Source: Actinomycetes bacterium
GTDB lineage: Bacteria > Actinomycetota > Acidimicrobiia > Acidimicrobiales > RAAP-2
Assembly: GCA_021793515.1 (NCBI GenBank)
Contig: JAJYSP010000001.1
Span: 10,533 to 74,532, forward strand
DNA length: 64,000 nucleotides
Direction of reading: 5' to 3'
Under the pieces are notes generated by a model, which saw only the letters and a list, made by a program, of their open reading frames with translations, had not been told where the DNA came from and did not search any database. The position numbers and the translations under genes were made by a program. This document shows positions 9,107 through 30,495 of the stretch, piece by piece. How positions within the stretch are numbered: the first letter of the stretch is position 1; each line of letters starts with the position of its first letter.

Positions 9107-10381
9107 CTATGGCATTTGCATCAGTGATTGCAGGACGGTGTCGGTCGTCGTGACGACCTTCGTATTCGCCTGGTAGGCCGTTTGGGCCTGGATCAGGTTC
9201 GTCAACTCCGTCGCGAGGTCGACGTTCGAGCCCATGACGGCACCACCCTGGAGCCTCGCAAACCCACTGGAGCCGGGCTGGCCATATTGGGGGTTCCCCG
9301 ACGCCACCGAAGCCGTAAAGTACGTCTGTCCCACATCATTCAAACCCTGATTGTTCGCAAAGCGCGCCAGCGCGATGGTACCGAGCACCTTGGATCCACC
9401 GTTCGAGAACGCACCGGTGATGACGCCGTCTGCCCCGATCGAATATGAGTCCAATGTCCCCGCTGCGTTGCCGTCCTGTGACGCGACGGCAACCGACGAA
9501 CTGCCAGCAAACTGCGTGACCGCCGTTGCCGAACCGACCGCCGGAAGATCGAAGGCGGGGTTCGTGCTCCCCGACCAGGTGTAGTTCGACGGGTTATTGG
9601 TGATAGCCAAACTCGTTTGACCCGTGCTGACCGCCGTTCCATTTACGGTGGACAGTTGCCCGTTACTGCCGAACACGAGGGTCTGGGGTGACGTCCACAG
9701 TGGCGATGTCGCACCCGGCACGGTTCCCTGCATCGCCCAACTCGTCGCGTTTCCGTTGGTTCCCGTGGTGGGCGTCAAGGTGAGCGTCACGGGTACCGCA
9801 GTGCCCAGCGAGTCATAGATGGTCGTCGTCAGGGTCACCGGTCCGGAAGGTGCTGCGGGAAGATTTCCCCCCAACACCACGTTCTGGGTCTGCGTAGGAG
9901 CACCAGTCGTACCCAACTGAATGGTCAAGGGCGTAGGCGGCGTCGAGGTCGGCTGGCCGGGCGTCCACCCTTGAACCAATCCCCCGCCGCTCGTGGCGAG
10001 GTGTCCGTTCGCGTCCAGCTGGAGATCGCCGTCGAGCGTATAGAACGTCTGGCCCTGTTGGCTCACGGTCAAGAAGCCATTTCCCTCGATGGCGACATTG
10101 CTCGGTACGCCGGTCTGGATGACCGAGCCAGGCGTGAAATTCAATCGGGTCGCTGAGACCTCGACGCCGGCCCCGATCGAGGAGGGATTGGTACTCGCCA
10201 ACGTCGTACCCGACGCGCCGCCCGCGGGCAGCAATTGCTCGGTCAACATGTCGGAGAACTCAACCGATGAGGACACGAAGCCATCGGTCTGTGAGTTGGC
10301 AATGTTGTTACCAATGGTGTCGAGGTAGGTCTGCATCGTGTCGATTCCCGATGCAGCGGCCCCTAGTGAACGGTTAGACAT
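9107..10381 (-). CDS. flgE: Flagellar hook protein FlgE
   Basis: LDTIGNNIANSQTDGF N-terminus, AIEGNGF, SNVDLATELTNLIQAQTAYQANTKVVTT C-terminus. Confidence 0.97.
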   Translation of the reverse strand: MSNRSLGAAASGIDTMQTYLDTIGNNIANSQTDGFVSSSVEFSDMLTEQLLPAGGASGTTLASTNPSSIGAGVEVSATRLNFTPGSVIQTGVPSNVAIEGNGFLTVSQQGQTFYTLDGDLQLDANGHLATSGGGLVQGWTPGQPTSTPPTPLTIQLGTTGAPTQTQNVVLGGNLPAAPSGPVTLTTTIYDSLGTAVPVTLTLTPTTGTNGNATSWAMQGTVPGATSPLWTSPQTLVFGSNGQLSTVNGTAVSTGQTSLAITNNPSNYTWSGSTNPAFDLPAVGSATAVTQFAGSSSVAVASQDGNAAGTLDSYSIGADGVITGAFSNGGSKVLGTIALARFANNQGLNDVGQTYFTASVASGNPQYGQPGSSGFARLQGGAVMGSNVDLATELTNLIQAQTAYQANTKVVTTTDTVLQSLMQMP

Positions 10382-10466
10382 GATGGCTCCTTTACTACGT
10401 GTTGGTGGGATGGTGATGGTGAGAAATGGTGTTTCGCTAGCCAGAGTGCTCGAGAACGTTGCCGCA

Positions 10467-10868
10467 TCAGACGCTGCCGATCTGGGTCACCGCTGATAGA
10501 TCGACGACGTCGGTTCCCAGATCCAGCGTGACGCCAGACGAGCTGTTGGTCACCCCCGTCACCTGGCCAGTGATGACACTGCCGTTGCTGTCGGTGCCCG
10601 TCACGGTCTTACCGATGAGTGACGCAGCTGAACCAATAGTGGACGAGGACGCGAGGCTCTGGAGTTGCTCGACCTGAGACAGTTGGGCGAGCTGACTCAT
10701 GAAGCTCGCCGAGTCGGTGGGGTTCATCGGGTCTTGATAACGCAACTCGGCGACGAGCAAGCTCAAGAAGGTGTTGGGTTGCAGGAGGCTTGAACCACTA
10801 AGGGACGATGCGTTGGCACCACCGATAGGGGTATTCGAGCTGTCCAACGGGCTTATGGGCATGGTCAT
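10467..10868 (-). CDS. flgD: Hook cap protein FlgD
   Basis: FLSLLVAELRYQDPMNPTDSASFMSQLAQLSQVEQL; ASLIGKTV. Confidence 0.96.
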   Translation of the reverse strand: MTMPISPLDSSNTPIGGANASSLSGSSLLQPNTFLSLLVAELRYQDPMNPTDSASFMSQLAQLSQVEQLQSLASSSTIGSAASLIGKTVTGTDSNGSVITGQVTGVTNSSSGVTLDLGTDVVDLSAVTQIGSV

Positions 10869-10983
10869 TGGTGACGCTCCTCGTTTACTTTTTTCACAAG
10901 AGAATGTGCGTGGCGGCGTGATGCACGGCGACGGTACTCCGCCATGACGGGTGCGACGCTCACCACTCGCGAGTGCGTGGTAC

Positions 10984-12315
10984 TCATAGGATCACGTGGA
11001 TCTGGCCCTCACCGGGCTCGGTCTGATTCGCGACAAACTCGCCGTTCGCGTCATCGATGAAGTCGGAGCCACGCGGGTCGCGACGCTCGTGTTGACCACG
11101 ATGCGAACCGTGATCGTGCAACGTGACGTGCACGTTCAACCCGCCCCGACCAAGTTCCGCGCGAAGCGTTTCAAGCTCGTGACCAAGGATTTCATGAGCC
11201 TGACGCGACTCCGGGGAAATGTTCACGTGCAGGTCATTGCCGACGAGTGACACCGTCGCACGCACGGGTCCCAAGGTCTCTGGGTGAAGCGAGAGTGAGA
11301 CCCGGTAGTCCCCGTCTGCGCTCGCCATACGCGACACGTCATCGACGAAACGACGTACGTCGAGTGACCCAGCAGGCGCGACGCGTGCGTGCATGGGAAT
11401 TCCCGCAGATGGCACGACAGTCGCAACCGCACGCGTCTGGTCTGGCGCGGCGGCCCACATCAACGTCGGTGCAGCCGAGTCCGTACGTATCGCATCGCGC
11501 CCGATCGAACGCGGTGGGACCGAGTCTCGACGAGCGCTCGCGCCAGATCGGTCCACTACTCGCGATGCCGTCGGGTGGGGGGAAGACACCGCTGGTGGAG
11601 CCTGGGTCGTACGTCGCGAGTCAACGACGGACCGAGCGGGATGGGACGTGGGCACGGGACTAAGCGGGGTACGCACGCGCAACGGCGCGTCAGGCCGCGT
11701 CGACACGGCCCCCGCGTCGGTCGGGCTGATCGACGCAGGTCGACCAACTCGGCTCTCCCATCGCGCCGTCGTCGTGGCACGCTCGGACGAGACGGCTTCA
11801 CGTGCTGTCGCCTGGCGGGCGACCTCAGATTCGATTACTACCGGCTTGGAGCCACTGACCTCAGGCGTTGCGGCCGTGGAACCGGGCCGCGCCGATGAAC
11901 CAGTTTGGCTATCGCCGCGCCGAACCGCTGATGCACTGCCGCCGTTGTTGACGAGGGACTCGACCTCGGGAGCGCTAGACGATACCGAGACCTTCGGCGC
12001 GATTGGAACACGTGACTCGACCGGCAGCACTGGCGCCACGACGGGCGCCACCAGTGACCGCACCTCGCCACCTTTTAGTGCTCGGAGCTCCGTGCGCAGC
12101 CGCCCGGTCTTCCGTCCCTTCGCCGGCGACGCTGCGTCACTGGGACGATGTTCACTCGTCCCCGAGTGACTCGCGGTCACCTTGGCGGCACCTAACACCT
12201 CACCGAAGGTTCGCGTCGGAGTCGTCGCGGCATCGCGCGTTGGTGCAACCGACGGGCTCGGAACCTTCGCATTGGGCACCGACGATCGACCGGGTGGGCT
12301 AATGGCCGCGTTCAT
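10984..12315 (-). CDS. fliK: Hook-length control protein FliK (start re-called at ATG 12315 after GGAG)
   Basis: Long Pro/Ser/Ala/Arg-rich region followed by T3S4 domain LSLHPETLGPVRATVSL..LHVNI..LETLRAELGRGGLNV. Confidence 0.88.
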   Translation of the reverse strand: MNAAISPPGRSSVPNAKVPSPSVAPTRDAATTPTRTFGEVLGAAKVTASHSGTSEHRPSDAASPAKGRKTGRLRTELRALKGGEVRSLVAPVVAPVLPVESRVPIAPKVSVSSSAPEVESLVNNGGSASAVRRGDSQTGSSARPGSTAATPEVSGSKPVVIESEVARQATAREAVSSERATTTARWESRVGRPASISPTDAGAVSTRPDAPLRVRTPLSPVPTSHPARSVVDSRRTTQAPPAVSSPHPTASRVVDRSGASARRDSVPPRSIGRDAIRTDSAAPTLMWAAAPDQTRAVATVVPSAGIPMHARVAPAGSLDVRRFVDDVSRMASADGDYRVSLSLHPETLGPVRATVSLVGNDLHVNISPESRQAHEILGHELETLRAELGRGGLNVHVTLHDHGSHRGQHERRDPRGSDFIDDANGEFVANQTEPGEGQIHVIL

Positions 12316-12379
12316 CGGTGCCATCTCCAAACTCGCAGTTTCGACCTCGCTGCACGAGCCGCCAGATGGGAGCGCATTC

Positions 12380-13147
12380 TCATGAACCCGCGATTCGGCG
12401 TATTGCCACGATGGCACCGGCATTGAGAATTGGTTCAATCCGTACGACGGCACCGGTGTAGGGCGCGTCGATCATCTGATCGCCGCCAACGTAGATGGCG
12501 ACGTGCCCGGGTGAACTCGCCGTCCCATCAGAGCCCGCGAAGAAGAGGAGATCCCCGGGTCGCGCGTCCGCGAGCGACGTCACCGGCTGTCCAACCACGG
12601 CCTGCTCCTCGCTCGTACGTGGCAGTTGAACGCCCAGGCGAGCGAAGACATACTGAACGAATCCCGAGCAGTCAAAGCCCGCGGGGGTTGTCCCTCCCCA
12701 CACGTAGGGCGTCCCGAGATACTGCTCCGCCGTCTTCACGATGCTCGAGTCAGTACCGGCCAGCACCGTTGGCGACGTCGGCTGTGACGGCGACGCCGAG
12801 ACAGCGACCGACGTCGCGGGCGACGGACTGGCGTGCGGGCTCAACGATGGCCCGGAGTTGGAGGTCACCACTGTGGTGGGACTGGGCGACGCAGACGGCA
12901 CGGCTATGCCCGCAGGCACGAATCCCGATCCAATTGATGACGTCGGACCTTCGTAGCCGACGAACAGTCCTAGACCGTCGGTCGAAGCGGACGCGGTCGT
13001 CGGCGACGGGCTCGGTACGGCGAAGTTGTCAAGGAGCGTTGCGAAGGTTGTGTCAGTCGCCGGTCCCGCGGCGTAGGTCGACGCTGTTGAGACGGCAACG
13101 GCGTCGCCCGAAGTCACAGGTGCGATTCCCACCGAGGAAACGTTCAC
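12380..13147 (-). CDS. NlpC/P60 peptidoglycan hydrolase within the flagellar operon
   Basis: YLGTPYVWGG..FDCSGFVQYVF, RTSEEQ, GHVAIY; Ser/Thr/Pro-rich N-terminus; between fliJ and fliK. Confidence 0.9.
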   Translation of the reverse strand: MNVSSVGIAPVTSGDAVAVSTASTYAAGPATDTTFATLLDNFAVPSPSPTTASASTDGLGLFVGYEGPTSSIGSGFVPAGIAVPSASPSPTTVVTSNSGPSLSPHASPSPATSVAVSASPSQPTSPTVLAGTDSSIVKTAEQYLGTPYVWGGTTPAGFDCSGFVQYVFARLGVQLPRTSEEQAVVGQPVTSLADARPGDLLFFAGSDGTASSPGHVAIYVGGDQMIDAPYTGAVVRIEPILNAGAIVAIRRIAGS

Positions 13148-18221: not shown

Positions 18222-18542
18222 TTAGAGGGGCATATTCATGATCGAGTTGAGAGAACTGACTGCGCGACTCGCCAGCGCGCTCGCGAGTTGGGTGTCGAGG
18301 TTGGCGATAGACGACGCGACCGTCGCATCGGCCACCGTCGCTTGTCCTGCTGCGGCCTCCAATGAGAGTGACGTCGCGTTGTTGGTTACGCCGTTGAGTG
18401 CGTCAACGGCCTGACCCAAGATGTTGGAAAATGGCGCCGAGGCCGCCGTTACGGACGCAGTTGAACTGAGACCCGTCGACGCGGCCGCGCTGGCGATCGA
18501 TGAGGCGATCGATGGGATGGCGGGTATGGCCGGGATCATCAC
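18222..18542 (-). CDS. fliE: Hook-basal body protein FliE
   Basis: FSNILGQAVDALN..AAAGQ..RAVSSLNSIMNMPL; between flgC and fliF. Confidence 0.9.
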   Translation of the reverse strand: MMIPAIPAIPSIASSIASAAASTGLSSTASVTAASAPFSNILGQAVDALNGVTNNATSLSLEAAAGQATVADATVASSIANLDTQLASALASRAVSSLNSIMNMPL

Positions 18543-18964
18543 TACGCCTTGATGTTGAGGATTGCGTCGTAGGCGTCTATTGCACTCGACATCGCCTTGG
18601 CGTTGGCCTGATATGACGTCTGGGCCTGGATGAGATCAGTCACCTGCGTACCCAGATTCACCACGGGGTACTCGACCACCCCCTTGGCGTTCGCCATCGG
18701 GTTCGTCGGATCGTACTGCAACTCACCGGTTGCGGGTCCAAGATCAATCGCGCTCACGCGCACGCCCGCGACCGCCCCGGGTCCGAGCGCCGACGCTGGC
18801 GACACCTGCTCGGTCGCGGCCACGTACTGGGCCTGGTACACCGGTTGACCTGGCGTCACCGCATCATTCATGTTGGCGATGTTGCCGCCGACGGTGTCGA
18901 TCCACGTCTGGTCGACGTTGACACCGGTCCCGGCGATATCAATGGCACTCCACATTGAACTCAC
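18542..18964 (-). CDS. flgC: Basal-body rod protein FlgC
   Basis: IDIAGTG..IDTVGGNIAN; YDPTNPMANAKGVVEYPVVN; DLIQAQTSYQAN. Confidence 0.95.
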   Translation of the reverse strand: MSSMWSAIDIAGTGVNVDQTWIDTVGGNIANMNDAVTPGQPVYQAQYVAATEQVSPASALGPGAVAGVRVSAIDLGPATGELQYDPTNPMANAKGVVEYPVVNLGTQVTDLIQAQTSYQANAKAMSSAIDAYDAILNIKA

Positions 18965-18972
18965 GACAACTC

Positions 18973-19311
18973 CTAGGCGGTCAGCGCGGCTGACAAGAGG
19001 GCAAACTGTGCACTGAGGGCGTTATCGATCGTCTTGTTCTCGAGATTGTTCTCCTGGAGGTACGTCATCTCCGTCGCGATCGACACGTTGTTTCCGTTGA
19101 CACCTGACGCCAGTCCCTCGGGAGTGGTCGTCACCGACGCGCTGCCACCCTGTTGCAGTGCTTGGGCGAGTGACGTCTGAAAACTGACCTGACTGGCCTG
19201 GAAGCCCGGCGTGTCTTGATTGGCGATGTTGTTTGCGATGACCTGTTGTTGTGTCACAACGGCGTCGAGCGCGAACTGCAATATCCCGATCGAATCAGTG
19301 GCGTCGGCCAT
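18973..19311 (-). CDS. flgB: Basal-body rod protein FlgB
   Basis: QQVIANNIANQDTPGFQA; NGNNVSIATEM. Confidence 0.95.
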   Translation of the reverse strand: MADATDSIGILQFALDAVVTQQQVIANNIANQDTPGFQASQVSFQTSLAQALQQGGSASVTTTPEGLASGVNGNNVSIATEMTYLQENNLENKTIDNALSAQFALLSAALTA

Positions 19312-19468: not shown

Positions 19469-22400
19469 TCAGACCTCGTTGAAGCTCGCGCCAATTCGTG
19501 CCATGACCTCAAGGAGGCGGTGCTGACTCGTGTGTTGACACGCCTCCACCGATATCGGGGCGACGTCGCGAACACCCTGGTTCCCCAGTCGGTTCAACAG
19601 ATCACGGTCGTTCACGGCACGCAGCATCGCACGCACCAAGTCGTCCTCGTGAACGTCGCGCCATAGCGACTCACTAAAGACACCTGATCCCGCGACCACG
19701 CGCGCGGGACTCGGTGACGTGGCAAGAAGGATTGAGTTCTGCTCCGTGCAGAAGTCACGGTGTCCCCCCACGTCGGGGCAGATGGTCGCGAGTCCGTGGG
19801 CTAGGGCCTCTAGGAACGGCAAGCCGTATCCCTCGCCTCGCGTCGCCAGGACGAACGCGTCGCTCGCTAGATAGAGCTGGGTCAATGTTTCGCGTGAGAC
19901 GTGTTCGGTGTAGACCCTCAAGCGACCCCGTACCAAAGCGAGTTGCGTCGGCGATAGCGTGGCGTGCAACCACGTCTCAAAGTCAGCGGGTGTGACACCG
20001 CTCAACTTCAACGTCAGGTCGCAGTTCGGCTCATGCGCGGCCACCGCAGCGAACGCTCGAAGCAATGCTTCAGGATTCTTACGCGGCTCAAAGTGAAAGA
20101 CCGACAGAAAGGTAAAACGTCCCCGAGGGACCCGTAGTCGAGCATCGAGCACGGCCTCGACGTCAACCACGGGGGTGCCGGGTGCCACCGTGTAGACCTT
20201 GGTCGCCGAAATCCCTGAGTCGACCAGTATTTGAGCGTCGTAACTCGAGAAACACCACACCTCATCGAACGCTCGAAGTGACATCTGAAACTCGTAAGGC
20301 AACGGTGTGGCCTCGAACGTCGTTCGGGCCACGCGATACTTGGCGCGAACGGATGTCGAGACCGTCGAGAGCCAACCCACCGGCACGTCCACTACCGCTA
20401 CGTCCAAGTTCGCATCGCGAAGCGAGCGCCACGGTAGTGCGTCGCCAGGAGTATCCAAATCGGGTGATGTCGAAACGTCCACTCGCAACACGTCGACACC
20501 GCGCTGCGCCAGGTAGTCGACATCGAAGAGGGTTCGTGAAGCGTGTGCGAAGCCGGAGGTTCCACTGAGTATTCCCAACTGGCCCACCAACGGAGCGAGT
20601 GATGTTGGCCGACGCGGTGTCGGCAATGTTCGCGGCCGCGCAATTCGTCGGCCCACGGCGATGACGTCCAAGGGGGCAATGTCGCGCACGGGACCACACG
20701 CCCCCTCAACGGGTACGAAGCCCGACTTTGACAGCATGGCCTTGAGAAGTCGGACTGGGTATGGCCGAATGTGCGTCGAATCCAGCCAGAAGTTTTCGAG
20801 GCCAACGCCTGGGGCGGAGAAATCTGGCGTCTGGATTATGACGACACCGTGATCGGCCACGTGATCGAAAATCCACTCGAGGAGTGTCTGGAACTCACTC
20901 GGATGGAGATGCTCGACAATGTGGCCGATGAACACACCGTCGAATGGCTCGGGCTCAATTGACGCCAGATCATTGGGTATGAACCCTTCATACACGGTGA
21001 ATCCGTCAGCCCGCAGCGCTTGGACCAGGGCCGGGTCCGCTTCGATCCCTTGAACTCGCTTGCCTGACGCGCGACAGACTCGCAGCATCGATCCCTGACC
21101 ACAGGCAATGTCGAGAATGGAGTCGCACGCACCCAGGTAGCCCGCGAGTCGCGTTGCGATGTCGTAGGTGGCGTGATCGCCGCCTTCAAAGTCATGGGCG
21201 TAGGCGAAGTAACCCGCACGCTCGTACTGTGCCGACGCGATCTGGGATCGATAGGGTCCCGCAGACCACACATCCGGTACTGACTCGGTGATCTGCGAGA
21301 GACGCTCTCGAACTGCTGAGAGCTCGCCGCGCTCTCGAACTCCGATTCGTGATTCGACCTGTGTCGCCAAGTCAAGGGCGCTCGCCACGTCGCCCACGGC
21401 AACCAGCCGTGACAACAACGTCGCCGTTTCACCAGGCGAATCGTGGAGCGACGACGCGAGGTCAGTGGTGAGTCGGGACAGTTCGTCCGTTGGCTCGCGA
21501 CCTGAAACGAGGGACTCAAGGGACTCGTGGGCTAGGTCGCCCACATGGTTCCAGCCGAGCGAAGACGCTCGCTCCTTCGCCGCTCGCGACAGTGCGGTCA
21601 GATCGACCTCACCATCAACCACTTCCTTCAGGATTCGACCTAACTCATCGACCGAAGGTTCATACCAGTAACTTCGATCTGCCAGGATCGATTCGCCTAC
21701 TCGAGGCGACTCACCGACGGCGAACGTAGCCGGGATGAGGAGCGATTCGTTCGCACCACAAAACTCATTGGTGGCGCCGCCGCGTGTGTGGATCACGGGC
21801 GTGCCCACCGCCATGGCTTCGAGTACACCGAGGCCGAAACCCTCGGAGCGGTAGGGGTGCACGAGGACATCTGATTCGGCAATGCGATGCAGAAGATCCG
21901 CTCGGCTCAGGTATCGGGCCTCTACCGACACGCGCGACGCCACTCGCTGGTGTTGGTCGAGCGACTGAGCGAGGAGGGACTGATTCTGATAGAAGGTGTC
22001 AGCGCCGACCTCCTTGATGGTCAACTGCGTACGTGCGAGCGTGGCGTCATCAAGTTGGTCGAGGGCGGCGATCAGGACGTCGACGCCCTTTCGCATAATC
22101 GTGCCGCCGAGGAAGAGCAGACGCGTGACATCCCTTGACTGACGTACCGTATGACGCGGCACCTCGGCGTCGACGCCATTGGGCACCACCCACACCTTTG
22201 ACGCCTCGACGCCAGCCTGGAGATACCCGCGTTTGCAGTACTGACTTGGCACCCATATCGCGTCGGCGTCGCGTACACCTGCGATCCACGACAGCGGAAT
22301 GGATCCGAACTCCCAGGGCTGGATGATGACGAGGCGCTCTCCCCCACGGTGCCCCCAGACCGGGGGCCACATCTGACGAATCCGAACGTCAACCGAGCCG

Positions 22401-22588
22401 TCGGGTTCACCCACCTCCACCCTCGAGTCCGTCCGCGCTGCCACTAACTGCGCGAGTTCTCGATCGGATAGGTCGAATCCCACCACCGAGACGTTGTGTC
22501 CTCGTTGTGCGAGCTCTTCGGCGATGTGGTGATTCACGATGCCGTAGCTTCCAGCGAGTGAGAGGTTCCCCTCGACGACTATCCTCAC
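19469..22588 (-). CDS. Trimodular GT4-methyltransferase-GT4 protein (start re-called at GTG 22588 after GGAGGAGG; 1039 aa)
   Basis: GT-B domain 1 (PWEFG..DAIWVPS..VPNGVD..RKGVD..YRSEGFGLGVLEAMA), SAM motif ILDIACGQG with HIVEHL, GT-B domain 2 (RKNPEALLRAF..TRGEGYGLPFLEA). Confidence 0.88.
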   Translation of the reverse strand: MRIVVEGNLSLAGSYGIVNHHIAEELAQRGHNVSVVGFDLSDRELAQLVAARTDSRVEVGEPDGSVDVRIRQMWPPVWGHRGGERLVIIQPWEFGSIPLSWIAGVRDADAIWVPSQYCKRGYLQAGVEASKVWVVPNGVDAEVPRHTVRQSRDVTRLLFLGGTIMRKGVDVLIAALDQLDDATLARTQLTIKEVGADTFYQNQSLLAQSLDQHQRVASRVSVEARYLSRADLLHRIAESDVLVHPYRSEGFGLGVLEAMAVGTPVIHTRGGATNEFCGANESLLIPATFAVGESPRVGESILADRSYWYEPSVDELGRILKEVVDGEVDLTALSRAAKERASSLGWNHVGDLAHESLESLVSGREPTDELSRLTTDLASSLHDSPGETATLLSRLVAVGDVASALDLATQVESRIGVRERGELSAVRERLSQITESVPDVWSAGPYRSQIASAQYERAGYFAYAHDFEGGDHATYDIATRLAGYLGACDSILDIACGQGSMLRVCRASGKRVQGIEADPALVQALRADGFTVYEGFIPNDLASIEPEPFDGVFIGHIVEHLHPSEFQTLLEWIFDHVADHGVVIIQTPDFSAPGVGLENFWLDSTHIRPYPVRLLKAMLSKSGFVPVEGACGPVRDIAPLDVIAVGRRIARPRTLPTPRRPTSLAPLVGQLGILSGTSGFAHASRTLFDVDYLAQRGVDVLRVDVSTSPDLDTPGDALPWRSLRDANLDVAVVDVPVGWLSTVSTSVRAKYRVARTTFEATPLPYEFQMSLRAFDEVWCFSSYDAQILVDSGISATKVYTVAPGTPVVDVEAVLDARLRVPRGRFTFLSVFHFEPRKNPEALLRAFAAVAAHEPNCDLTLKLSGVTPADFETWLHATLSPTQLALVRGRLRVYTEHVSRETLTQLYLASDAFVLATRGEGYGLPFLEALAHGLATICPDVGGHRDFCTEQNSILLATSPSPARVVAGSGVFSESLWRDVHEDDLVRAMLRAVNDRDLLNRLGNQGVRDVAPISVEACQHTSQHRLLEVMARIGASFNEV

Positions 22589-22695
22589 TGGTCCTCCTCC
22601 GTGGCGACCAACCCGCTCGGACGCCGACACCGCGTGATTCACCGTCGCGACGTCTAGCTCATGTGCTCGATGGACGAATCGCTCGCCGACAGTAT

Positions 22696-22723
22696 TTACG
22701 GTCCGGCACTGAGTGCAATTGAG
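22696..22723 (-). promoter_or_regulatory. sigma28-like promoter of the GT4-MT-GT4 gene
   Basis: CTCAA-TTGCACTCAGTGCCG(15)-GACCGTAA, about 105 nt upstream of the GTG start. Confidence 0.7.
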
Positions 22724-22763
22724 GTGTCGCCTTGGAGACTGTCGTGAGGAATGACTCCGCGAC

Positions 22764-23048
22764 TTACAGGTCAGTTTCGACGTACGCCGACGAGCGACGA
22801 CCGTGCGGGCTCGGTGGGTGGGCGGAGGACCGTTTGGACAGTTCGACCATATGTTCGCTGACGGCCACCATGAGCCGTTCGCACTCCTCGTGTAGTGCCG
22901 CAACACGCCCGACACAGTCTTCAGGCACCACATCAAGCGGACGGTCTGGTATTGGGGGTACCGAGGAGAACCCCACCGCCAAAGCCCGTCGAATCGCGTC
23001 GAGGTAGGCGGTGAGGCCGTCTAGGTACTCAGGCCATGAACGAGCCAT
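22764..23048 (-). CDS. Small helical protein, FliT-like by position
   Basis: 94 aa MARSWPEYLDGLTAYLDAIRRAL..; directly after fliS, predicted helical. Confidence 0.55.
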   Translation of the reverse strand: MARSWPEYLDGLTAYLDAIRRALAVGFSSVPPIPDRPLDVVPEDCVGRVAALHEECERLMVAVSEHMVELSKRSSAHPPSPHGRRSSAYVETDL

Positions 23049-23430
23049 CACCACTGCGCTCGTTTGCACCGACTGCTCCGACCCACGCCTCGTGTATCGG
23101 TGTGAAGAGGTCTATACACTCGCGCAGCACCTCGACACTCTTCTCCAGATTTGCCTTGATCAAGTGATGCTCGATGAAGACGTAGACCGACATGAGCTCG
23201 TGGCCGCCTCGGAAGCCGTCTGGATCCAGGGCGTTACGCAACATTCGAATCAATCGTTGCGCGTGCTGAAGATTGTCATTTGCCACGGCGTAATCCCGCG
23301 CCTCGATGGCGACCTCGGCCCTCGCCATATCCGCCGTGAGCCGATCACAGATCATGAGCAGGAGCCGTGGACCATCGGCGGTGCTCACCGCCTGGTCTTG
23401 GTAGGCGGATGCGGGATTGCGGATTGACAT
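23029..23430 (-). CDS. fliS: Flagellin chaperone FliS
   Basis: AYQDQAVSTADGPRLLLMICD; NLQHAQRLI..L..ALD; LMSVYVF; IHEAW. Confidence 0.93.
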   Translation of the reverse strand: MSIRNPASAYQDQAVSTADGPRLLLMICDRLTADMARAEVAIEARDYAVANDNLQHAQRLIRMLRNALDPDGFRGGHELMSVYVFIEHHLIKANLEKSVEVLRECIDLFTPIHEAWVGAVGANERSGDGSFMA

Positions 23431-23442
23431 GGTCTCGACCAC

Positions 23443-25959
23443 CTAACTCGTACTCAGCGTCGAACCGGTATTGAAGAGCGACGAACTTGAAGTCGAAGAC
23501 GAAGCCGACGACGCGAGAAATTTACTCACCGAACTCAACTGCGCGAGTTCGGTCTCCATGGCATTGAACTCCTGGGTCAGCATCGCCCGCTGGGTCGTCA
23601 CGAGCTGATTCTGCAACGCAATTTCACCGGTGACGTTGGTCAAGGTGCTGTTCAGTCCACTCGTCGCCGTGGCGATCTGCCCGCCTGGCGCGAGTGTCGA
23701 TTGAACGGCCAAGCTCGCGAGGCCCTGCGCTATTCCGGGAGAGTAATCGACGGTCCCAATGGTGGTTGCAGTGCTGATTCCTGGCGTCGTAACCAAGAGC
23801 GAGAGCCCATTGGCGGCGTTCGCGGGGTTGTTCAGCGTCAGTGTCTGACCCAAACCCGTCGCCGCCACACCATTGATGGTGCCAACGACATCGGCACCAG
23901 TGAAACTTGTCCCCGATGAAGTCAGGCCCAGTTGGTCGGTTCCCGACGCGCCCACGCTGAACGAGGCGGCCGAGCCATAGTTGGCTGAACCGAGTTGTAC
24001 CGCGTAACCCCCCGACACGGCGGTCGTTGAAGCTGAGACAGTGATACCGGCCGCCGCGAGCGAAGCGTTCAAGCCCGACACGACTGCGGCCACCGTCTCG
24101 CCCGCGTTGGCCGTGTAGCTGGCGGTTGCACCACCCGAGGTGATGGTGTAACTCTCGCTCGACGCCAGCGTCGACGTCGGTGCCGCAAACACGGCGGAAC
24201 CCGTGTCAATGGCTTGACTCGCCGACTTACTCACCGAGACGCCATAACTGCCCGTGGTCGTCGAGTCAGTTGCGCCAGTAATCGCGACCTGTCCAGTGAA
24301 CCCAGAACTTGACGGTGAAAACGTTCCACCTACGGTAAACAGCGACTGAACTGCGTGAGGATTGGCGTCGTAGGCCGTGATGAACGCATTCTGGTTGAAT
24401 GCAATGGTCCCCGTCGAGGTAATCGAGAGACCCGCCGACTCACCTGCGGTTCCATCGGACCCCGCGGCCGACGTTCCGACGGCGTACCCCACAATGGCGA
24501 GGACGCGTTGGGCCAGTGAGTTCAAGGATGACTGCCCGTTCAGTGGAGCGGCGACTCCGGTCGACGAGTTGTACGCCGTATCAGTGGAAATCTCCGACAA
24601 GACTTTGTTGGCCGCGTCGACGAGTGTCGATACCTGGCCCGCAATCGTCGAGCCGTCAGCAGCTACGTTCAGGGTCACCGGAGTCGCGCTGACTTGAGTC
24701 AGATTGGCGGTGACGCCCGGTAAGAGTCCCCCAACCGAATTGGTCGACGAAACGACTTCGGGTCCGCCCACGCCACCAACTGACACGATCGAATCCTGTG
24801 CGGCGGTGGTCAGTTGCATCGCCCCGAGCGACGATGTCGCGAATGCCTGCGTATCGATGGTTGCGGCGCCAGAGAGACCGGTCTTGTTGGACGTCACCTC
24901 CAACGCATACGTGTTCGTGCTCGTCTGCAGCGCCGTCGCGGTCACGCCCGCGTTCGCTCCGTTGATGGCGCTGACCACCGAAGCGAGAGAGCCATTGCCA
25001 ACCGACACGTTCTGAGCGGTCATCGTCCCCAACGTGAGTGGGCCCGCCAGATTCGCGGTCAACGTACCACCGCTGCCCGACGTCAACGTCACTTGCGTCG
25101 TGCCGGAAGCGGCAATGTTCGAAACTGTCGTGGCAGTTCCGTCAACAGTGATCACACCGTCGGTACCAGTGACGACACCACTCGTGGCCATGCCGAGGGC
25201 GGTGAGCGCCGTGCCTCCGGTCAACTGCATCGAAGCAGTCGAGCCCTGTTGATCGGTCGCGAGCGAGATATTCCCGCCGGCACCGATTGTCGCACTCAGC
25301 GTGCCACCCGACGCTTGGGTGATCGCCTGCACGAGTTGGGTAGGCGTATACGTCCCTGATGCGATGACGACCGTCGACGCGGTCCCACCAATCGTGACGT
25401 TCAGGGTGTCGTTGCTCGACGAGATGGTCGTACTCGCAGCCGGCGGTGTCGATGCCAGGACCGTGGCACCGGACGATGCCTGCGTGACTTGAATCGAGTG
25501 CGCACCGAGGGACAGCCCGGACTGGCCCGCGAAGGAGTCGATCCCGAGGGCTGCGCCTCCGGATCCAATGAGGTAATCACCCGACGCGACAACGTCACTG
25601 GTGGCTGAGACGGTTCCGGCCGAAATTTGCGTCGAACCTGTCGCCAATTGATCGACGGCCATCGTGATCGAGCCGGGTTCACTGCCCGATGTGATTGTTC
25701 CGGTGGCCACGCCCGAATTCGAGGACGTTACCGAATAGGCCTGATCGAACGCCATTGAGGTCGAGAGGGCATCGCCGGCTTGTTGGAGCGCGAGCAAGTC
25801 GGAGTTGATTGCTTGATAGTCGGAGATTTGCGTATTGAGTGTGGTCTGTTGAAGCTGCAATGCGGCGAGGGGCTGTTCGAATATCGCCATCTCGGCGTTG
25901 ATGATCTGATTGGTGTTGATGCCGGACTGCAGTCCACCGAAACTGACGGGGCTCGACAT
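23443..25959 (-). CDS. fliD: Filament cap FliD (838 aa; start re-called at ATG 25959)
   Basis: FGGLQSGINTNQIINAEM N-terminus, VDQLAT, AQDS..V..SSTNSV..LLPGVT, MLTQEFNAMETELAQL C-terminus. Confidence 0.93.
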   Translation of the reverse strand: MSSPVSFGGLQSGINTNQIINAEMAIFEQPLAALQLQQTTLNTQISDYQAINSDLLALQQAGDALSTSMAFDQAYSVTSSNSGVATGTITSGSEPGSITMAVDQLATGSTQISAGTVSATSDVVASGDYLIGSGGAALGIDSFAGQSGLSLGAHSIQVTQASSGATVLASTPPAASTTISSSNDTLNVTIGGTASTVVIASGTYTPTQLVQAITQASGGTLSATIGAGGNISLATDQQGSTASMQLTGGTALTALGMATSGVVTGTDGVITVDGTATTVSNIAASGTTQVTLTSGSGGTLTANLAGPLTLGTMTAQNVSVGNGSLASVVSAINGANAGVTATALQTSTNTYALEVTSNKTGLSGAATIDTQAFATSSLGAMQLTTAAQDSIVSVGGVGGPEVVSSTNSVGGLLPGVTANLTQVSATPVTLNVAADGSTIAGQVSTLVDAANKVLSEISTDTAYNSSTGVAAPLNGQSSLNSLAQRVLAIVGYAVGTSAAGSDGTAGESAGLSITSTGTIAFNQNAFITAYDANPHAVQSLFTVGGTFSPSSSGFTGQVAITGATDSTTTGSYGVSVSKSASQAIDTGSAVFAAPTSTLASSESYTITSGGATASYTANAGETVAAVVSGLNASLAAAGITVSASTTAVSGGYAVQLGSANYGSAASFSVGASGTDQLGLTSSGTSFTGADVVGTINGVAATGLGQTLTLNNPANAANGLSLLVTTPGISTATTIGTVDYSPGIAQGLASLAVQSTLAPGGQIATATSGLNSTLTNVTGEIALQNQLVTTQRAMLTQEFNAMETELAQLSSVSKFLASSASSSTSSSSLFNTGSTLSTS

Positions 25960-26056: not shown

Positions 26057-26095
26057 CCCGGCACTCTCCGGGGACAAACCCCGGAGAGTGCCGGG
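26057..26095 (-). terminator. Hairpin immediately after the fliC stop
   Basis: Perfect 17-bp stem CCCGGCACTCTCCGGGG / CCCCGGAGAGTGCCGGG with 5-nt loop; no U-tract. Confidence 0.8.
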
Positions 26096-26100
26096 CGGGA

Positions 26101-26937
26101 TTACTGCAACAGCTTTTGGGCCAGGCTCGGAAGGTGCTGCGCCTGGTACAAGACGGACACGCCAGACTGCTCAAGAATCTGCAGCGACGCGAACTGCGTG
26201 GTTGCCGCCGCAACGTTAACGTCGACCAAGTTGGCGTGTGCGGCCTGAATGTTCTCCTGGGCCGTCGTCAAGTTCGCCGACAGTGACGTCATCTGGTTCT
26301 GAGTCGCACCAACGTTGGCCGCCTGCAACGCCACCGTGGAGATGGCCGCCTGGACGGCGGTCATCGCGGCCTCGGCCGCACCGACGGTCCCGATGCTGAC
26401 CGCAGCGCTACCCACACCGAGGGCTGACGAGCTCGACGCTGCGATGGTGATGACAATCTGGTCGCTGGCCTGGTTGTACGGTCCGACCTGGAAGGTCTGA
26501 CCCGAGTACGAGCCGTTGAGTAGGGACGTCCCACCGAAGTTCGTACTCGCCGCGATCTGGTCGAGTTCGTTCTGGAGTGAGCTGAACTCGGACTGCGACG
26601 CTTGCAGCGTCGTTGAGGTCTGAGTTCCACCGTTCGCTACCTGCGTGGCCAGGGTGTTCATGGTCTGCAGGATCGATGCCTCTTGACCCAACGCGCCCTG
26701 CGCGGTTTGGAGCACTGAAACAGCGCTCTGCACGTTGCTGATTGCCTGGGTGTAGCCGTTGCCTTCCTCTTGCAGATACTGGCCGATGACGTACCCTGCC
26801 GGGTTGTCGGCGGCCGTTTGAATCTGGAATCCCGAAGACAGCTGGCTCACAACCGATGACAAGGCCGTATTAGTCGTGTCGAGGTTGTTATACGAGTTCA
26901 CTGCAGACGAGTTGTAATTGATATCGATTCCCGACAT
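26101..26937 (-). CDS. fliC: Flagellin (minimal, 278 aa)
   Basis: INYN..A; LSSGFQIQTAADNPAG; NAVSVLQTAQGAL-type block; TNFGGTSLLNGS; FQVG; LGA.QNR-equivalent VGATQNQ; QILEQSGVSVL; SD AGGAGG. Confidence 0.96.
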   Translation of the reverse strand: MSGIDINYNSSAVNSYNNLDTTNTALSSVVSQLSSGFQIQTAADNPAGYVIGQYLQEEGNGYTQAISNVQSAVSVLQTAQGALGQEASILQTMNTLATQVANGGTQTSTTLQASQSEFSSLQNELDQIAASTNFGGTSLLNGSYSGQTFQVGPYNQASDQIVITIAASSSSALGVGSAAVSIGTVGAAEAAMTAVQAAISTVALQAANVGATQNQMTSLSANLTTAQENIQAAHANLVDVNVAAATTQFASLQILEQSGVSVLYQAQHLPSLAQKLLQ

Positions 26938-26977
26938 GGGATCTGTCCTCCTGTTGACGTTCCCCCTCGCGAGGGCT

Positions 26978-26991
26978 GAGCATCCTTGCTC
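26978..26991 (-). promoter_or_regulatory. CsrA-type GGA hairpin in the fliC leader
   Basis: GAGCA-AGGA-TGCTC: 5-bp stem with AGGA loop, matching CARGGAUG; further GGA motifs in the SD (ACAGGAGGA). Confidence 0.65.
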
Positions 26992-27000
26992 ACCAGTGAC

Positions 27001-27028
27001 TTACGGACCTACGAACGCGAGAGTTGAG
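27001..27028 (-). promoter_or_regulatory. sigma28-like promoter of fliC
   Basis: CTCAA-CTCTCGCGTTCGTAG(15)-GTCCGTAA, about 63 nt upstream of fliC. Confidence 0.8.
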
Positions 27029-27054: not shown

Positions 27055-30000
27055 CTACCGATTCACTGATTGTGCGACGCCGTATCGCCGCTGCTCGAGG
27101 CCACGCAGTCGCTCACGTACCGACCGAGACCACAACGAGGGCGCGTACAGCTGGCTGACTCGTCGTCGAACCCGACCGGTATCGAGCCGAGCTAGTAACG
27201 GGGCCGAGACAACTCGACGCATGGCGAGTGTTGCCGCCGCGAGGTCGGGTTCGGCCCACGTACCACCCGGCGTACACCAACGTCCCTCAACCGGGATGGA
27301 CGTGGAGGTCGCGGGCACCAACATCGCATCCTGGTCGCTCAGTATCTCCATGGCGATGGAGTGACGAGTCGCAATCACGGGTACACCTAATGCGGCGGCT
27401 CGGGTGAGCCCTAAGCCGGTCCCCTCACTTCGATGCAACGCCACAAAACAGGTGGCGGTCCTCGCCCGGCCAACAAGCTCTCGGCCGCTGACCCCGTCAG
27501 CCTGTGAAATTAGCGCGATGTCGTCTCGACCCATGATCTGCGCGAGCAGCCGAGCGTGTTCGGCGGGGAACTCGTGCTCGTGCGCGGCTTCGATAATGAG
27601 TCTGGTTTGATCGCCAGATTCGAAGGCGCCGCAATACGCGCTAACGACACCGAGTGGATTCTGGCGTTCGAACCCCGTCCGGTAATCGACGCCGGCGACA
27701 AACGTGAATCGGTCGTCGTTATCCCTCGCCACCCTTTCGCCCTCGAAAATGAGCGGTACGCGCACGTTCGTCACGGTTTGATCAGTCACCCGAGAGACCG
27801 CGCGTGCGGCAAACGCCGACGGCACCCAGATTTCGTGCACCATTCGCGTAGTGATCGCCATCATCTCTGAGGGCTGCTCGAGGTCCCACGGCCACATGCC
27901 GATTGCGTAACGATTTTCGAAGGGCGTCGCGCCAAGATCGATAGCGAAGTTCGATAGATCCTCCGGTGACATGACAAAGAGCGACGTGTCAAAGGGAAAG
28001 TCGCCGGCGTCACGATGTTGCCACTCGACCACTCCCGGTCGACCCCCCGCGTGATACGACGTCGTCGACACCGGGTACTTCACCCCACGCAGAGCCGTGG
28101 CGACGGCGCGCGCCACGTGTCCGTGGCAGTCCGATGACTCGAAGGGACCCACGATATTGATGCCACCACGGGTGGGGTGAGGAGCCACGCTCAGCGTCGG
28201 CACCGCGCTAACACGTCGACCTCGCTCCGATCGCTGCGTCGGCGAACTCGAACCGGTCGGCCCCTCGACGACGACGAGCTCGTCGTCGGGTTCCTGTTCC
28301 ATCAGCGTCGGTGCCAGTCTCGCGGCGGTGGCGAGTGCGTCATCACGGACTTCGGGAGGGAGTTTTGCCCGAGCTTCCCGTGCGCCGCGAACCACTCGTC
28401 GATCCCCGAACGTGCCATACGCCGCCGCAGCGGCAAGAAGGCGAACAACGGGGTCGGCGTCGGCGTCGGCCGACATGGTCACGAGCGGACACGACGTCCC
28501 CAGTCCCCGAGTACGCAGTCGAGAGGACCACACCAACGCCCGAGCAATTCCAAAGCGCGGCGCGAGTCGCGCCGCGGCGGCCAAGGGTTCAGGGCGGTCG
28601 AGGAACTTGCTCCAGATTCCTTCCAGCACGGCGTCGGCGACTTCGGGCGTTTGATGGACCGTGCGACCGAGCACGGGCATCAAGTCGGACTCTTGCATTG
28701 CTTCGGCGATCTCGCTCGGTGATCGTCCCGAGCGCTCCAACCACTTCGTAAGCTCGCCGAGGTCCGCTTCGAGAACACCAGCCTCACGAATGGCCGCTAG
28801 GACGACATCGGCTGCCAATGAGTACTCACCTAACTTTGCCAGTGCCGTAGCTCGAAGGGCCGCGAGCGTGTGCTCCGAATACTCCATCCCGTCGTCGTCT
28901 CGTCCGCGTGGAGGAATTCTCGCGAGGATCGCCAACCCACCATCGAGGTCCCCCATCGAGATCCTTATGTTCCCCTCGGCGATATCCGCCACAATCTGAA
29001 TGACTGAGACACGTCGCAATTCCGCGACCTGCGCGAGCGCCTCATCAAATCGACCCAGCCTCTGCAGTATGTAGATCAGATTCTTGATTGCCAAACGACG
29101 CGTAATTGGGTCTTCTGTGATGGAAGCCGCCTCCATGAGCGCGTCCACCGCCTCATCGCTGCGGCCCGCCGATTCCAACGCGCGACCGTAATTCATGAGG
29201 GCGTAGGCGTGGCTCATGTCATCATCAGCCAGGGCCGCCCGCGCCAAGTCGAGATTTCGACCCGCTTTCTCGCGTGCATCGAAGACCGCAGCGACGTAGC
29301 CCGTGTGAATAATGCGACCACCGCTCAAGTAGTTGATCCGCAATCCTCGACCGAGGTCATCAACCGCCACGACTTGCTCGTGGAGGCGGTGACGCCACGT
29401 CGCGCGCGAGCGACGGAACAGGCGGACGGCCGTGTGCACCGAGCGAGCATTGCCGGCGCCGTGCAGGTTCTCGATCGGGACCAAGAACGCGTCGATGTCG
29501 ACCGGTTGCGCCCTGAGGATGCCGCGGATTGTTTGGGCGTCACCTAGGAACGTCTCGTCCGCATCGAGTGAAAGGACCCACTCACCTCGTGCCTGACCAA
29601 GCGCCACGTTGCGAGCGCGCGCGAACGAGTTGTCCCAGAATCCTTCGAACACCCGAGCGCCCGCCGCGCGGGCGATCTCAACGGTACGGTCCGTGGACCC
29701 GGTGTCATACACGACAATTTCATCGGCGAGCTTTCCGACGGACTCGAGACAGGACTCCAGCATCGCCTCTTCGTCCTTGACGATGAGACATACCGAGATG
29801 AGGCACGACGGTTCGGGACCTTCGAGCAGCCACTTGGCCTGATATCGCCGCAAGTTCTCCGCGCGATAGTAGGCATGGTCGACGTTGTTGGCGTCAAATG
29901 TCACTCGCCCGACGTGACTGACGTTTAGAGGATGACTCGTCACGAGTCGCCGGCCCGTCGCCCGTATCGTGCGACACATATCCCAGTCTTCGTATCCCCC

Positions 30001-30495
30001 CATGACGTAGTGCTCGTCGAATCCGCCAACCTCCCGGAAAACGCTGCTGCGCACCGCCAAACACGACCCGCCACAGACGTCTGTCTCGCTTACGGGCTCT
30101 GAGGCGTGAACCCGTTCGGGAATTTCGAGGTCGGTCGCGGTACCACTCGCCGCCACCGTCGGATCGTCGAAGGCGGCCAACAACTCCTCGAGCCACCCGG
30201 GCCCCACCACGGTGTCATTGTGCAAGAAGACGATGACTTCTCCGTGCGCCTGCTGCGCCCCTTGATTCCAAGCGCTGGCGGCGCCCCGATTCTGGCGATT
30301 GGTGATCACCTCGATGCGATCGAACGTCGCAAGCTCACTGGACGTCGCGTCACGCGAGCCGTTATCAATAATCACGATCTGATCGGTCGGCGCGATCGTC
30401 GAGCGCAGCGAATCCAGACACGTACGAGTGTGCGCCCAGGCATTCCACGCGGACACAACGATCGTCGCCGTGGGGCGTACTTTCTCTTGGGGCAC
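27055..30495 (-). CDS. Multidomain GT2-GT2-TPR-GT4 glycosyltransferase, candidate flagellin glycosyltransferase
   Basis: GT2 #1 (TIVVSAWN..IDNGSRD..HNDT), GT2 #2 (SVCLIVKDEE..YDTGSTDRT..FARARN..LDADE), TPR-like helices (YALMNYGRAL, ALAKLGEYSLA), GT-B domain (RQNPLG..HRSEGTGL); directly upstream of fliC. Confidence 0.88.
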   Translation of the reverse strand: MPQEKVRPTATIVVSAWNAWAHTRTCLDSLRSTIAPTDQIVIIDNGSRDATSSELATFDRIEVITNRQNRGAASAWNQGAQQAHGEVIVFLHNDTVVGPGWLEELLAAFDDPTVAASGTATDLEIPERVHASEPVSETDVCGGSCLAVRSSVFREVGGFDEHYVMGGYEDWDMCRTIRATGRRLVTSHPLNVSHVGRVTFDANNVDHAYYRAENLRRYQAKWLLEGPEPSCLISVCLIVKDEEAMLESCLESVGKLADEIVVYDTGSTDRTVEIARAAGARVFEGFWDNSFARARNVALGQARGEWVLSLDADETFLGDAQTIRGILRAQPVDIDAFLVPIENLHGAGNARSVHTAVRLFRRSRATWRHRLHEQVVAVDDLGRGLRINYLSGGRIIHTGYVAAVFDAREKAGRNLDLARAALADDDMSHAYALMNYGRALESAGRSDEAVDALMEAASITEDPITRRLAIKNLIYILQRLGRFDEALAQVAELRRVSVIQIVADIAEGNIRISMGDLDGGLAILARIPPRGRDDDGMEYSEHTLAALRATALAKLGEYSLAADVVLAAIREAGVLEADLGELTKWLERSGRSPSEIAEAMQESDLMPVLGRTVHQTPEVADAVLEGIWSKFLDRPEPLAAAARLAPRFGIARALVWSSRLRTRGLGTSCPLVTMSADADADPVVRLLAAAAAYGTFGDRRVVRGAREARAKLPPEVRDDALATAARLAPTLMEQEPDDELVVVEGPTGSSSPTQRSERGRRVSAVPTLSVAPHPTRGGINIVGPFESSDCHGHVARAVATALRGVKYPVSTTSYHAGGRPGVVEWQHRDAGDFPFDTSLFVMSPEDLSNFAIDLGATPFENRYAIGMWPWDLEQPSEMMAITTRMVHEIWVPSAFAARAVSRVTDQTVTNVRVPLIFEGERVARDNDDRFTFVAGVDYRTGFERQNPLGVVSAYCGAFESGDQTRLIIEAAHEHEFPAEHARLLAQIMGRDDIALISQADGVSGRELVGRARTATCFVALHRSEGTGLGLTRAAALGVPVIATRHSIAMEILSDQDAMLVPATSTSIPVEGRWCTPGGTWAEPDLAAATLAMRRVVSAPLLARLDTGRVRRRVSQLYAPSLWSRSVRERLRGLEQRRYGVAQSVNR

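Follow-up and report, generated by a model that had tools for sequence, protein, structure and literature searches.

The flagellins closest in build to the one described here consist of the D0 and D1 domains only and form the filaments of Kurthia (6T17), Shewanella oneidensis (FlaA/FlaB; 9OXJ, 9OXK and 9LAH), Leptospira (core filament; 9LRZ) and Bacillus subtilis (Hag; 5WJT). Ordinary members of this group contain about 6-10% lysine plus arginine (K+R) and carry near-invariant arginines at no fewer than eight positions, which have been treated as structural and immunological constants. A 64,000-nucleotide stretch (the window) of a genome from the order Acidimicrobiales (GenBank assembly GCA_021793515.1, contig JAJYSP010000001.1, positions 10,533 to 74,532) encodes a flagellin, FliC (26101..26937, minus strand), which shares family, length class and fold with these proteins, as well as an operon context that includes FliD, FliS and probable CsrA and FliW proteins, but has none of the conserved arginines. 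The clade to which FliC belongs is a natural lineage that dispenses with all of them, and no earlier description of K/R-free flagellins was found in the searchable literature, the coverage of which was incomplete.

Flagellar filaments are a textbook case of a self-assembling polymer. Ordinary flagella dissociate in acid, and acid dissociation is the standard way of preparing flagellin monomers. Pepsin exemplifies an acid-stable secreted protein with few basic residues. Helicobacter pylori faces the same problem of depolymerization at low pH and solves it with a membrane sheath over an ordinary filament, which has been described as protecting its flagellin against acid, whereas in the present case the subunits themselves are altered, in a monoderm, which lacks the outer membrane that a sheath would be made of. 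The literature on acid-stable secreted enzymes attributes their lower content of Lys, Arg and His to the repulsion of positive charges at low pH, and the acid-stable alpha-amylases of Alicyclobacillus and Bacillus acidicola resemble FliC in their reduced K+R(+H) and in bearing little positive charge once carboxylates are protonated. However, these amylases are monomeric and often have an acidic excess, while here a whole self-assembling machine is affected and Arg is almost fully eliminated; moreover, the monomeric secreted proteins of this genome depart from K/R reduction of the amylase type. A cultured acidophile of the same order, Acidiferrimicrobium australe USS-CC1, has a K/R-poor flagellin (MST32741.1; 2 K and 2 R in 281 aa) along with K/R-depleted FlgK, FliD and FlgL, and its flagellin gene lies next to a GT2 glycosyltransferase gene, as fliC does. 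Its flagellin differs from FliC in being 45% identical and in belonging to a group of which most members keep the equivalent of R92.

Fold and composition of FliC

FliC is 278 aa long and comprises the D0 and D1 domains only. It matches the Pfam families Flagellin_N (PF00669; 100 bits, E 1.5e-28, against a curated cut-off of 26.6) and Flagellin_C (PF00700; 51.2 bits, E 1.6e-13, cut-off 23), and its full length aligns with solved flagellar filament subunits at E ~1e-40 and 32-36% identity. An AlphaFold2 model (predicted local distance difference test score of 78) has helices at residues 10-34, 46-102, 108-131 and 185-276 together with a beta-hairpin, which is the canonical D0/D1 arrangement, and Foldseek superposes this model on the filament cores of Kurthia, Shewanella, Leptospira and Roseburia with template modeling scores of 0.77-0.80, the range over solved filament subunits being 0.77-0.81. 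The protein is a genuine bacterial flagellin (FliC/Hag) and an ordinary member of its family with a striking, clade-wide composition. Because near-invariant basic residues are typical of the family and do not define it, their absence is the anomaly. That FliC forms a functional filament is suggested indirectly, by the intact and conserved flagellar gene cluster in and beside the window and by strong purifying selection on the gene across >200 related clusters.

The residue counts are K 1, R 0, H 2, D 6, E 8, Q 34, N 21, S 36, T 26 and A 43, the single lysine being K275 in the C-terminal sequence AQKLLQ. FliC was aligned with 94 flagellins of ordinary composition (median K+R ~7.5%), and 18 columns were found to hold K or R in at least 50% of these, 8 of them in at least 95%. 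FliC is basic at none of the 18; it and its clade have N, Q, T, S, A, V, L, D or Y instead. Thus, FliC has Q32, Q38, T41, T92, N94, Q215, N236 and V238 where the ordinary proteins are basic in 98, 99, 78, 100, 83, 99, 91 and 99% of cases, respectively, and neither FliC nor its clade is basic at any of the near-invariant basic D0/D1 positions (17, 32, 38, 92, 206, 215, 238 and 251). Acidic residues have changed in parallel: 13 of the 20 columns that hold D or E in at least 50% of the ordinary flagellins are neutral in FliC, mainly through E-to-Q and D-to-N changes and otherwise through changes to T, S, H or A, while D44, E117, E124, D159, E228 and D239 are kept. With the conserved basic positions neutralized, and most of their conserved acidic counterparts along with them, the usual charges, and any ion pairs between them, are gone.

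A first-pass annotation of this DNA, made from the sequence alone, had counted no Arg, one Lys (in QKLLQ) and about 14 Asp/Glu in 278 aa, and these counts were reproduced exactly. The four motifs in which it saw usually basic positions replaced were borne out by the alignment with the 94 ordinary flagellins, and its suggestion of a filament held together without the usual salt bridges agrees with the loss of all 18 basic columns and 13 of the 20 acidic ones. It was also right that proteomics based on trypsin would largely miss the protein, which has one cleavage site and would yield a peptide of 275 aa. The depletion that it noted in FliC is real, but its restriction of the trait to flagellin proved too narrow, as described below.

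The one lysine that remains does not look accidental. Of 60 K/R-poor flagellins, 57 have K or R in the K275 column (codon and C-terminal LLQ at 26101-26115, minus strand), whereas this column varies among S, Q, K and R in the 94 ordinary ones. One positive charge near the C terminus therefore seems to be specifically retained, perhaps for the lining of the channel or for recognition by FliS, FliW or the export gate. Elsewhere, cationic residues appear to be shunned continuously. Across 116 homologues, 210 variable columns contain 631 minority residue states, among which 6 are Arg and 17 are Lys, compared with 6.8% K+R among the minority states of a comparable set of ordinary flagellins. In genomes with ~8% Arg, the rarity of Arg among these states indicates, as judged from sequence variation, continuing selection that includes surface positions. 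Arg also appears to be avoided more than Lys (6 versus 17, in a proteome where Arg outnumbers Lys 4:1), a preference that charge alone would not explain.

The genome as a whole (2.38 Mb, 65.7% GC, 43 contigs) has the opposite tendency, its proteome containing 7.9% Arg and 1.9% Lys (R:K ~4:1). Among its ~2,000 genes, called with a crude gene caller, fliC has the lowest K+R, and nearly all of the next-lowest belong to its flagellar cluster. Given how often this genome uses Arg, the probability of finding none in 278 aa is 1e-10, and at a typical flagellin K+R frequency of 7.5% the probability of at most one basic residue is 9e-9; a chance origin of the composition is excluded. GC content or mutational bias was likewise rejected as the cause of Arg loss, because the genome is rich in Arg.

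Depletion follows cellular location. Among exported parts that stay outside, K+R is 0.4% in FliC, 0.7% in the filament cap FliD (23443..25959, minus strand; 838 aa if counted from the ATG that relatives use, with 4 K, 2 R and both FliD_N and FliD_C), 0.8% in FlgK and 0.9% in the rod proteins FlgB (112 aa) and FliE (106 aa). Further exported structural parts have 1.4% (the hook protein FlgE, 424 aa), 1.5% (the hook cap FlgD, 133 aa), 2.3% (FlgL) and 2.9% (the rod protein FlgC, 140 aa). The Pfam-assigned rod genes flgB, flgC and fliE lie at 18222..19311 and flgE and flgD at 9107..10868, all on the minus strand. In contrast, the cytoplasmic proteins FliG, FliH, FliI, FliJ, FliM, FliN and FliS and two glycosyltransferases have 9.5-17%, the lowest of these values belonging to the Pfam-assigned chaperone FliS (23029..23442, minus strand), which serves as a cytoplasmic control. 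Orthologues from two Acidimicrobiales genomes with ordinary flagellins show no such depletion, at 10.0% for FlgL, 8.8% for FlgC, 6.8% for FliD, 4.3-6.6% for FlgD and 4.8-5.4% for FlgE. Depletion is therefore a trait of the whole external axial structure, comprising rod, hook, junctions, filament and cap, and not of flagellin alone. The hook-length ruler FliK (10984..12453, minus strand) provides an internal control for export, as it takes the same route and is released rather than built in. It has 7 K and 47 R (11%) and a net charge of +4, and because FliK is exported with 54 K/R, the constraint acts on the assembled outside structure and not on export.

Distribution and origin of the trait

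In 120 homologue clusters at 65-100% identity to FliC, Lys numbers 1-4 and Arg is absent, apart from occasional cases with 1-2 residues and one 300-aa outlier with 5. The 120 clusters nearest to the A. australe flagellin have a median K+R of 1.1% and include flagellins of 460-490 aa with ~3 K/R; altogether, >200 related flagellin clusters carry the depletion. In a library of representatives at 50% identity, typical flagellins have 6-10% K+R and a K/R-poor minority, to which the A. australe flagellin belongs, appears at 35-50% identity to FliC. Among named genomes, depletion was found only in metagenome-assembled genomes (MAGs) of Acidimicrobiales type, at 55-79% identity to FliC, and the flagellins of Planomonospora, Dactylosporangium, Geodermatophilus, Nocardioides, Blastococcus, Paenibacillus, Planctomycetota and others have 6-10% K+R. 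Across 401 genomes of the class Acidimicrobiia, flagellin K+R is bimodal: three families of the order are depleted, while other families and orders have 4.8-8.4%. Within the family of the genome studied here, the gene is present in 30 of 201 genomes. Nearly all sampled species of its genus (genomes of 1.3-2.2 Mb) have no flagellin, with this genome and one other keeping the cluster, and flagella thus appear, from gene content, to have been lost patchily in a streamlined lineage.

Whether the trait arose once or repeatedly bears on how many independent cases there are. A FastTree phylogeny of 163 flagellins required five changes of state, with the A. australe group nested within actinobacterial flagellins of ordinary composition. 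In a mixture-model tree of 55 sequences, the A. australe group instead stands next to the P0001 group, which is FliC's clade, with support of 93, and monophyly of the two groups was not rejected by the approximately unbiased (AU) test (p 0.24). Convergent evolution within Acidimicrobiales, suggested by the FastTree result and unsupported by the mixture-model tree and the AU test, was dropped. A few K/R-poor flagellins elsewhere in the tree hint at independent cases: P0156, which falls with Bacillota-type sequences, P0145, the neighbor of an ordinary sequence, and one from a MAG labeled Syntrophobacteraceae. The last of these (L045 and P0131; MAG CRr2D2E2F bin_5, 7 K and 1 R), labeled as deltaproteobacterial, groups with the Acidimicrobiales K/R-poor clade, a placement that could reflect horizontal transfer, mis-binning or compositional attraction.

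Proposed acid adaptation and competing explanations

Several carriers of the trait are associated with acid. In addition to A. australe, four MAGs (FK2.bin13, LSA3.bin6, MAS3.bin133 and ZJ4.bin53) have flagellins that are 55-80% identical to FliC and contain no Arg. The first three are listed in the supplements of a study of 90 sediments from acid mine drainage (AMD; Gao et al., 2022; PMC9061769), while ZJ4.bin53, which was not found in the supplements examined, was linked with this study through its sample name only. The samples from which the MAGs take their names have pH values of 2.49 (FK2), 2.51 (LSA3), 2.58 (MAS3) and 1.5 (ZJ4) (PMC9061769). FK2.bin13 was detected at pH 1.87-3.1, with peaks in FK2 (2.49), MAS3 (2.58) and FK3 (5.45), the order of the columns having been inferred from the sample list. 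A flagellin 87% identical to FliC occurs in an assembly of the same accession block as the AMD-sediment MAGs. By RpoB, the AMD-sediment carriers are 76-77% identical to the present genome, which corresponds roughly to family level. The exact fliC gene also occurs in SRR24975953, SRR24975955, SRR13221998 and ERZ272371xx/369xx, for which no habitat was found in searches of full texts and supplements.

A second line of evidence comes from secreted proteins in general, which were compared using a crude gene caller and a signal-peptide heuristic, with the comparator genomes represented by samples of 250-400 kb. Secreted Asp+Glu (D+E) is 7.2% in this genome (G000) and 8.1 and 9.7% in two other genomes with depleted flagellins (G577 and G047), whereas it is 11.1, 14.0, 15.6 and 15.9% in four with ordinary flagellins (G313, G364, G023 and G227); an AMD MAG with a depleted flagellin (G587) has 11.1%, a value derived from just 8 predicted secreted proteins and therefore uninformative. 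Per-protein D+E medians are 7.1 for carriers of depleted flagellins versus 14.6 for carriers of ordinary ones (p 3e-21), and 8.7 versus 14.6 when the present genome is left out (p 8e-11). In this genome, the Glu content of secreted proteins minus that of cytoplasmic ones is -3.4 points, compared with -0.2 to -1.8 in the four relatives whose flagellins are ordinary. A preprint on the prediction of growth conditions reported a correlation of optimum pH with precisely this Glu difference (rho 0.56) and considered protein localization critical for predicting pH; together with that correlation, the low secreted D+E and the Glu difference provide an independent, proteome-wide mark of low external pH in this genome. 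Carriers do not have less K+R in their ordinary secreted proteins (median 7.75 versus 6.43). Soluble secreted proteins thus shed D/E and keep K/R, while self-assembling structures shed K/R, which amounts to opposite charge strategies within one cell.

What was observed is the composition itself, how it varies with cellular location, how it is spread over the clade, and the acid-type secretome. From this we infer that the external flagellum is an axial polymer that withstands acid, assembles independently of charge and evolved in response to acidic water, sediment or soil, an explanation that we regard as probable without holding it to be secure. The calculated net charge of FliC (standard pKa values) is +3.5 at pH 2.5 and -13 at pH 7, compared with medians of +23.7 and -4, respectively, for 88 ordinary short flagellins. 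A charge of about +24 per subunit, repeated among thousands of packed subunits, is a plausible cause of the dissociation of ordinary filaments in acid. The external parts of this monoderm flagellum have been purged of Arg and Lys, and most conserved Asp and Glu neutralized, typically to isosteric amides or to Thr/Ser. In the proposed mechanism, removal of K/R would take away like-charge repulsion in acid and make assembly nearly independent of external pH, and conversion of their former partners to amides would leave no unpaired buried carboxylates and render the contacts insensitive to pH. Contacts in D0/D1 would then lack ion pairs and rest on hydrophobic packing and on hydrogen bonds from Gln, Asn, Ser and Thr.

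A more far-reaching version, which we entertain tentatively and would put slightly nearer to doubt than to belief, is that the whole flagellum assembles and rotates essentially without ion pairs, through Gln/Asn/Thr hydrogen-bond networks that are stable at pH <=3, while soluble secreted proteins follow the opposite course of keeping K/R and dropping D/E. If this is true, acid adaptation follows two separate rules, which differ between monomeric and polymeric extracellular proteins, and K275 is kept for a function of its own. The clade is a ready-made experiment on the contacts needed for assembly, supercoiling and export. It suggests how motility may persist at pH 2-3 without a sheath and could serve as a template for acid-proof protein nanotubes. 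The K+R of axial proteins together with the Asp/Glu of secreted proteins might also be used as a sequence marker for acid-adapted uncultured bacteria. Metaproteomics of AMD and acidic soils that relies on trypsin is predicted to overlook such flagellins.

Several considerations weigh against acid adaptation or narrow it. A low habitat pH is suggested for this organism by its relatives and by the composition of its secretome, and the secretome comparison itself has the coarse basis described above. The closest named genome by RpoB (92%) is a MAG from a soil catalogue, whose flagellin is also Arg-free, and other carriers come from soil and from Danish environmental MAG sets. A Chloroflexi MAG, DBS2-1.bin66, from a sample of pH 2.42 has an ordinary flagellin (5 K and 13 R, 6.5% K+R), and K/R loss is thus not obligatory in such acidic samples, with the caveat that bulk pH is not the pH of a micro-habitat. 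The trees above allow that the trait may have had a single origin, in which case the link with acid would be weakly replicated in phylogenetic terms. The normal K/R content of ordinary secreted proteins confines the argument to self-assembling structures, which is a post-hoc refinement, and the argument for acid stability is based on a calculation of net charge.

These considerations bear directly on the attribution made in the first-pass annotation, according to which FliC is adapted to polymerize at very low pH, where carboxylates are protonated and basic residues would repel one another. Adaptation to low pH is supported by the clade-wide composition, the acidophilic and AMD relatives and the D/E-poor secretome, but the evidence falls short of a very low pH for this particular organism and of a requirement for K/R loss in acid, to which the Chloroflexi flagellin is a counter-example. 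The repulsion argument would hold for self-assembling axial parts only and does not apply to ordinary secreted proteins, which keep K/R and lose D/E. A comparison of K+R among relatives, which it had envisaged, revealed depletion in the cultured acidophile and the AMD MAGs and the existence of ordinary flagellins in the same order. In its marked shortage of basic residues, at 0.4% K+R compared with the median of ~7.5% in the 94 ordinary flagellins, FliC resembles acid-adapted extracellular proteins.

The main alternative, to which we give a minor though appreciable share of belief, is that the architecture arose once in an acidophilic ancestor and has been kept since by co-evolved interfaces (epistatic lock-in), in an organism that perhaps now lives at mildly acidic or neutral pH without present benefit from it. 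Such an inheritance would suit the position of the P0001 and A. australe groups on one side of a branch (support 93, AU p 0.24), the soil origin of the closest named relative and the complete loss of flagella in most species of the same genus. The secretome signal argues against it, since this organism's own secreted proteins are as poor in D/E as those of other carriers, or poorer, and a trait of the whole genome could not be locked in place by flagellar interfaces. The finding of Arg in 6 of 631 minority states among the 116 homologues similarly points to selection that continues, at surface positions too. A less probable proposal concerns surface chemistry: regardless of stability, cations would be avoided to prevent a long exposed filament from sticking to negatively charged clays, humic acids and silica, or to prevent the binding of sulfate or metal oxyanions, which abound in mine waters. 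Sediments and soils are indeed the source of carriers, giant Thr/Ser-rich surface proteins and a collagen-like repeat protein make up the rest of the K/R-poor set of this genome, and the shunning of Arg beyond Lys (6 versus 17) is left unexplained by charge alone. However, the replaced positions lie in the conserved D0/D1 core and not mainly in surface loops, rod proteins inside the wall are depleted as well, and the neutralization of acidic residues makes the surface charge less negative rather than more. Avoidance of mineral or humic sticking may play a contributory part.

Evasion of trypsin-like proteases, or of receptors or phages to which conserved Arg-containing flagellin epitopes are a target, is distinctly improbable. 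With one Lys and no Arg the filament would not be cut by trypsin-like enzymes, and the conserved Arg site of the TLR5/FLS2 type is changed, but ordinary secreted proteins of the same genome keep ~7% K+R, the rod, hook and cap are all depleted, the parallel loss of Asp/Glu is left unexplained, and the organisms are free-living in sediment and soil and not host-associated. Least credible of all is a constraint on export, under which type III substrates would have to be cation-free for reasons of membrane potential or channel chemistry. All depleted flagellar proteins share one export route, but FliK leaves by that route with 54 K/R and a net charge of +4, and the K/R-poor set extends to a peptidoglycan hydrolase and to large surface proteins, the latter presumably secreted by another route, given their predicted signal peptides. 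On the composition of FliK, the export-charge constraint was rejected.

Gene neighborhood, expression signals and other surface proteins

The fliC gene is located between a glycosyltransferase gene and the fliD-fliS pair in a complete flagellar cluster, and this order is the same in relatives. The glycosyltransferase (27055..30495, minus strand; 1146 aa, 10.9% K+R) has the Pfam domain order GT2+GT2+TPR+GT1 and adjoins fliC in all close relatives, and on the strength of its domains and conserved synteny it likely glycosylates flagellin. A second putative glycosylation enzyme, of 1155 aa, is a GT4-methyltransferase-GT protein (19469..22936, minus strand) identified from Pfam matches and composition. 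With 22% Ser+Thr in FliC and conserved adjoining glycosyltransferases, heavy O-glycosylation may add to the protection of the filament.

Candidate expression signals were read from the sequence on either side of fliC. A promoter-like motif, CTCAA-N15-GTCCGTAA, lies 5' of the gene (27001..27028, minus strand) and is followed by a leader (26947..26990, minus strand) that contains AGCAAGGATGCT and an AGGAGGA ribosome-binding site. The AGCAAGGATGCT element (26976-26990, minus strand) would present GGA in a short hairpin and resembles a CsrA site. Directly 3' of the fliC stop codon is a perfect inverted repeat with 17-bp arms (CCCGGCACTCTCCGGGG...CCCCGGAGAGTGCCGGG; 26057..26095, minus strand) that has no T-run after it and is a probable terminator. 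Upstream of the window and close to it, contig C27 carries, beside flgK and flgL, open reading frames (ORFs) for a CsrA-like protein of 84 aa and a FliW-like protein of 154 aa, both labels being probable and based on ORF size and N-terminal sequence only. A feedback loop of FliW, CsrA and flagellin is known from B. subtilis, and by analogy the leader hairpin and these neighbors suggest that the same feedback acts on an Arg-free flagellin.

An NlpC/P60 peptidoglycan hydrolase is encoded within the flagellar operon between fliJ and fliK (12380..13147, minus strand); it is extracellular, has 2.7% K+R and probably opens the cell wall for this monoderm flagellum. The hydrolase ORF shares 74 bases with the longest fliK ORF, and the true fliK start is probably further downstream than that of the longest ORF.

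After the flagellar proteins, the most K/R-poor products of the genome are giant, repetitive secreted proteins rich in Thr, Ser and Gly (973-1791 aa), which have predicted signal peptides, and a collagen-like protein of GPQ repeats. These repetitive and collagen-like proteins, encoded at C13:247-5622, C42:5439-8360 and 10095-14231, C9:44476-49425 and C17:391-1218, contain 0.8-2.3% K+R in their mature parts.

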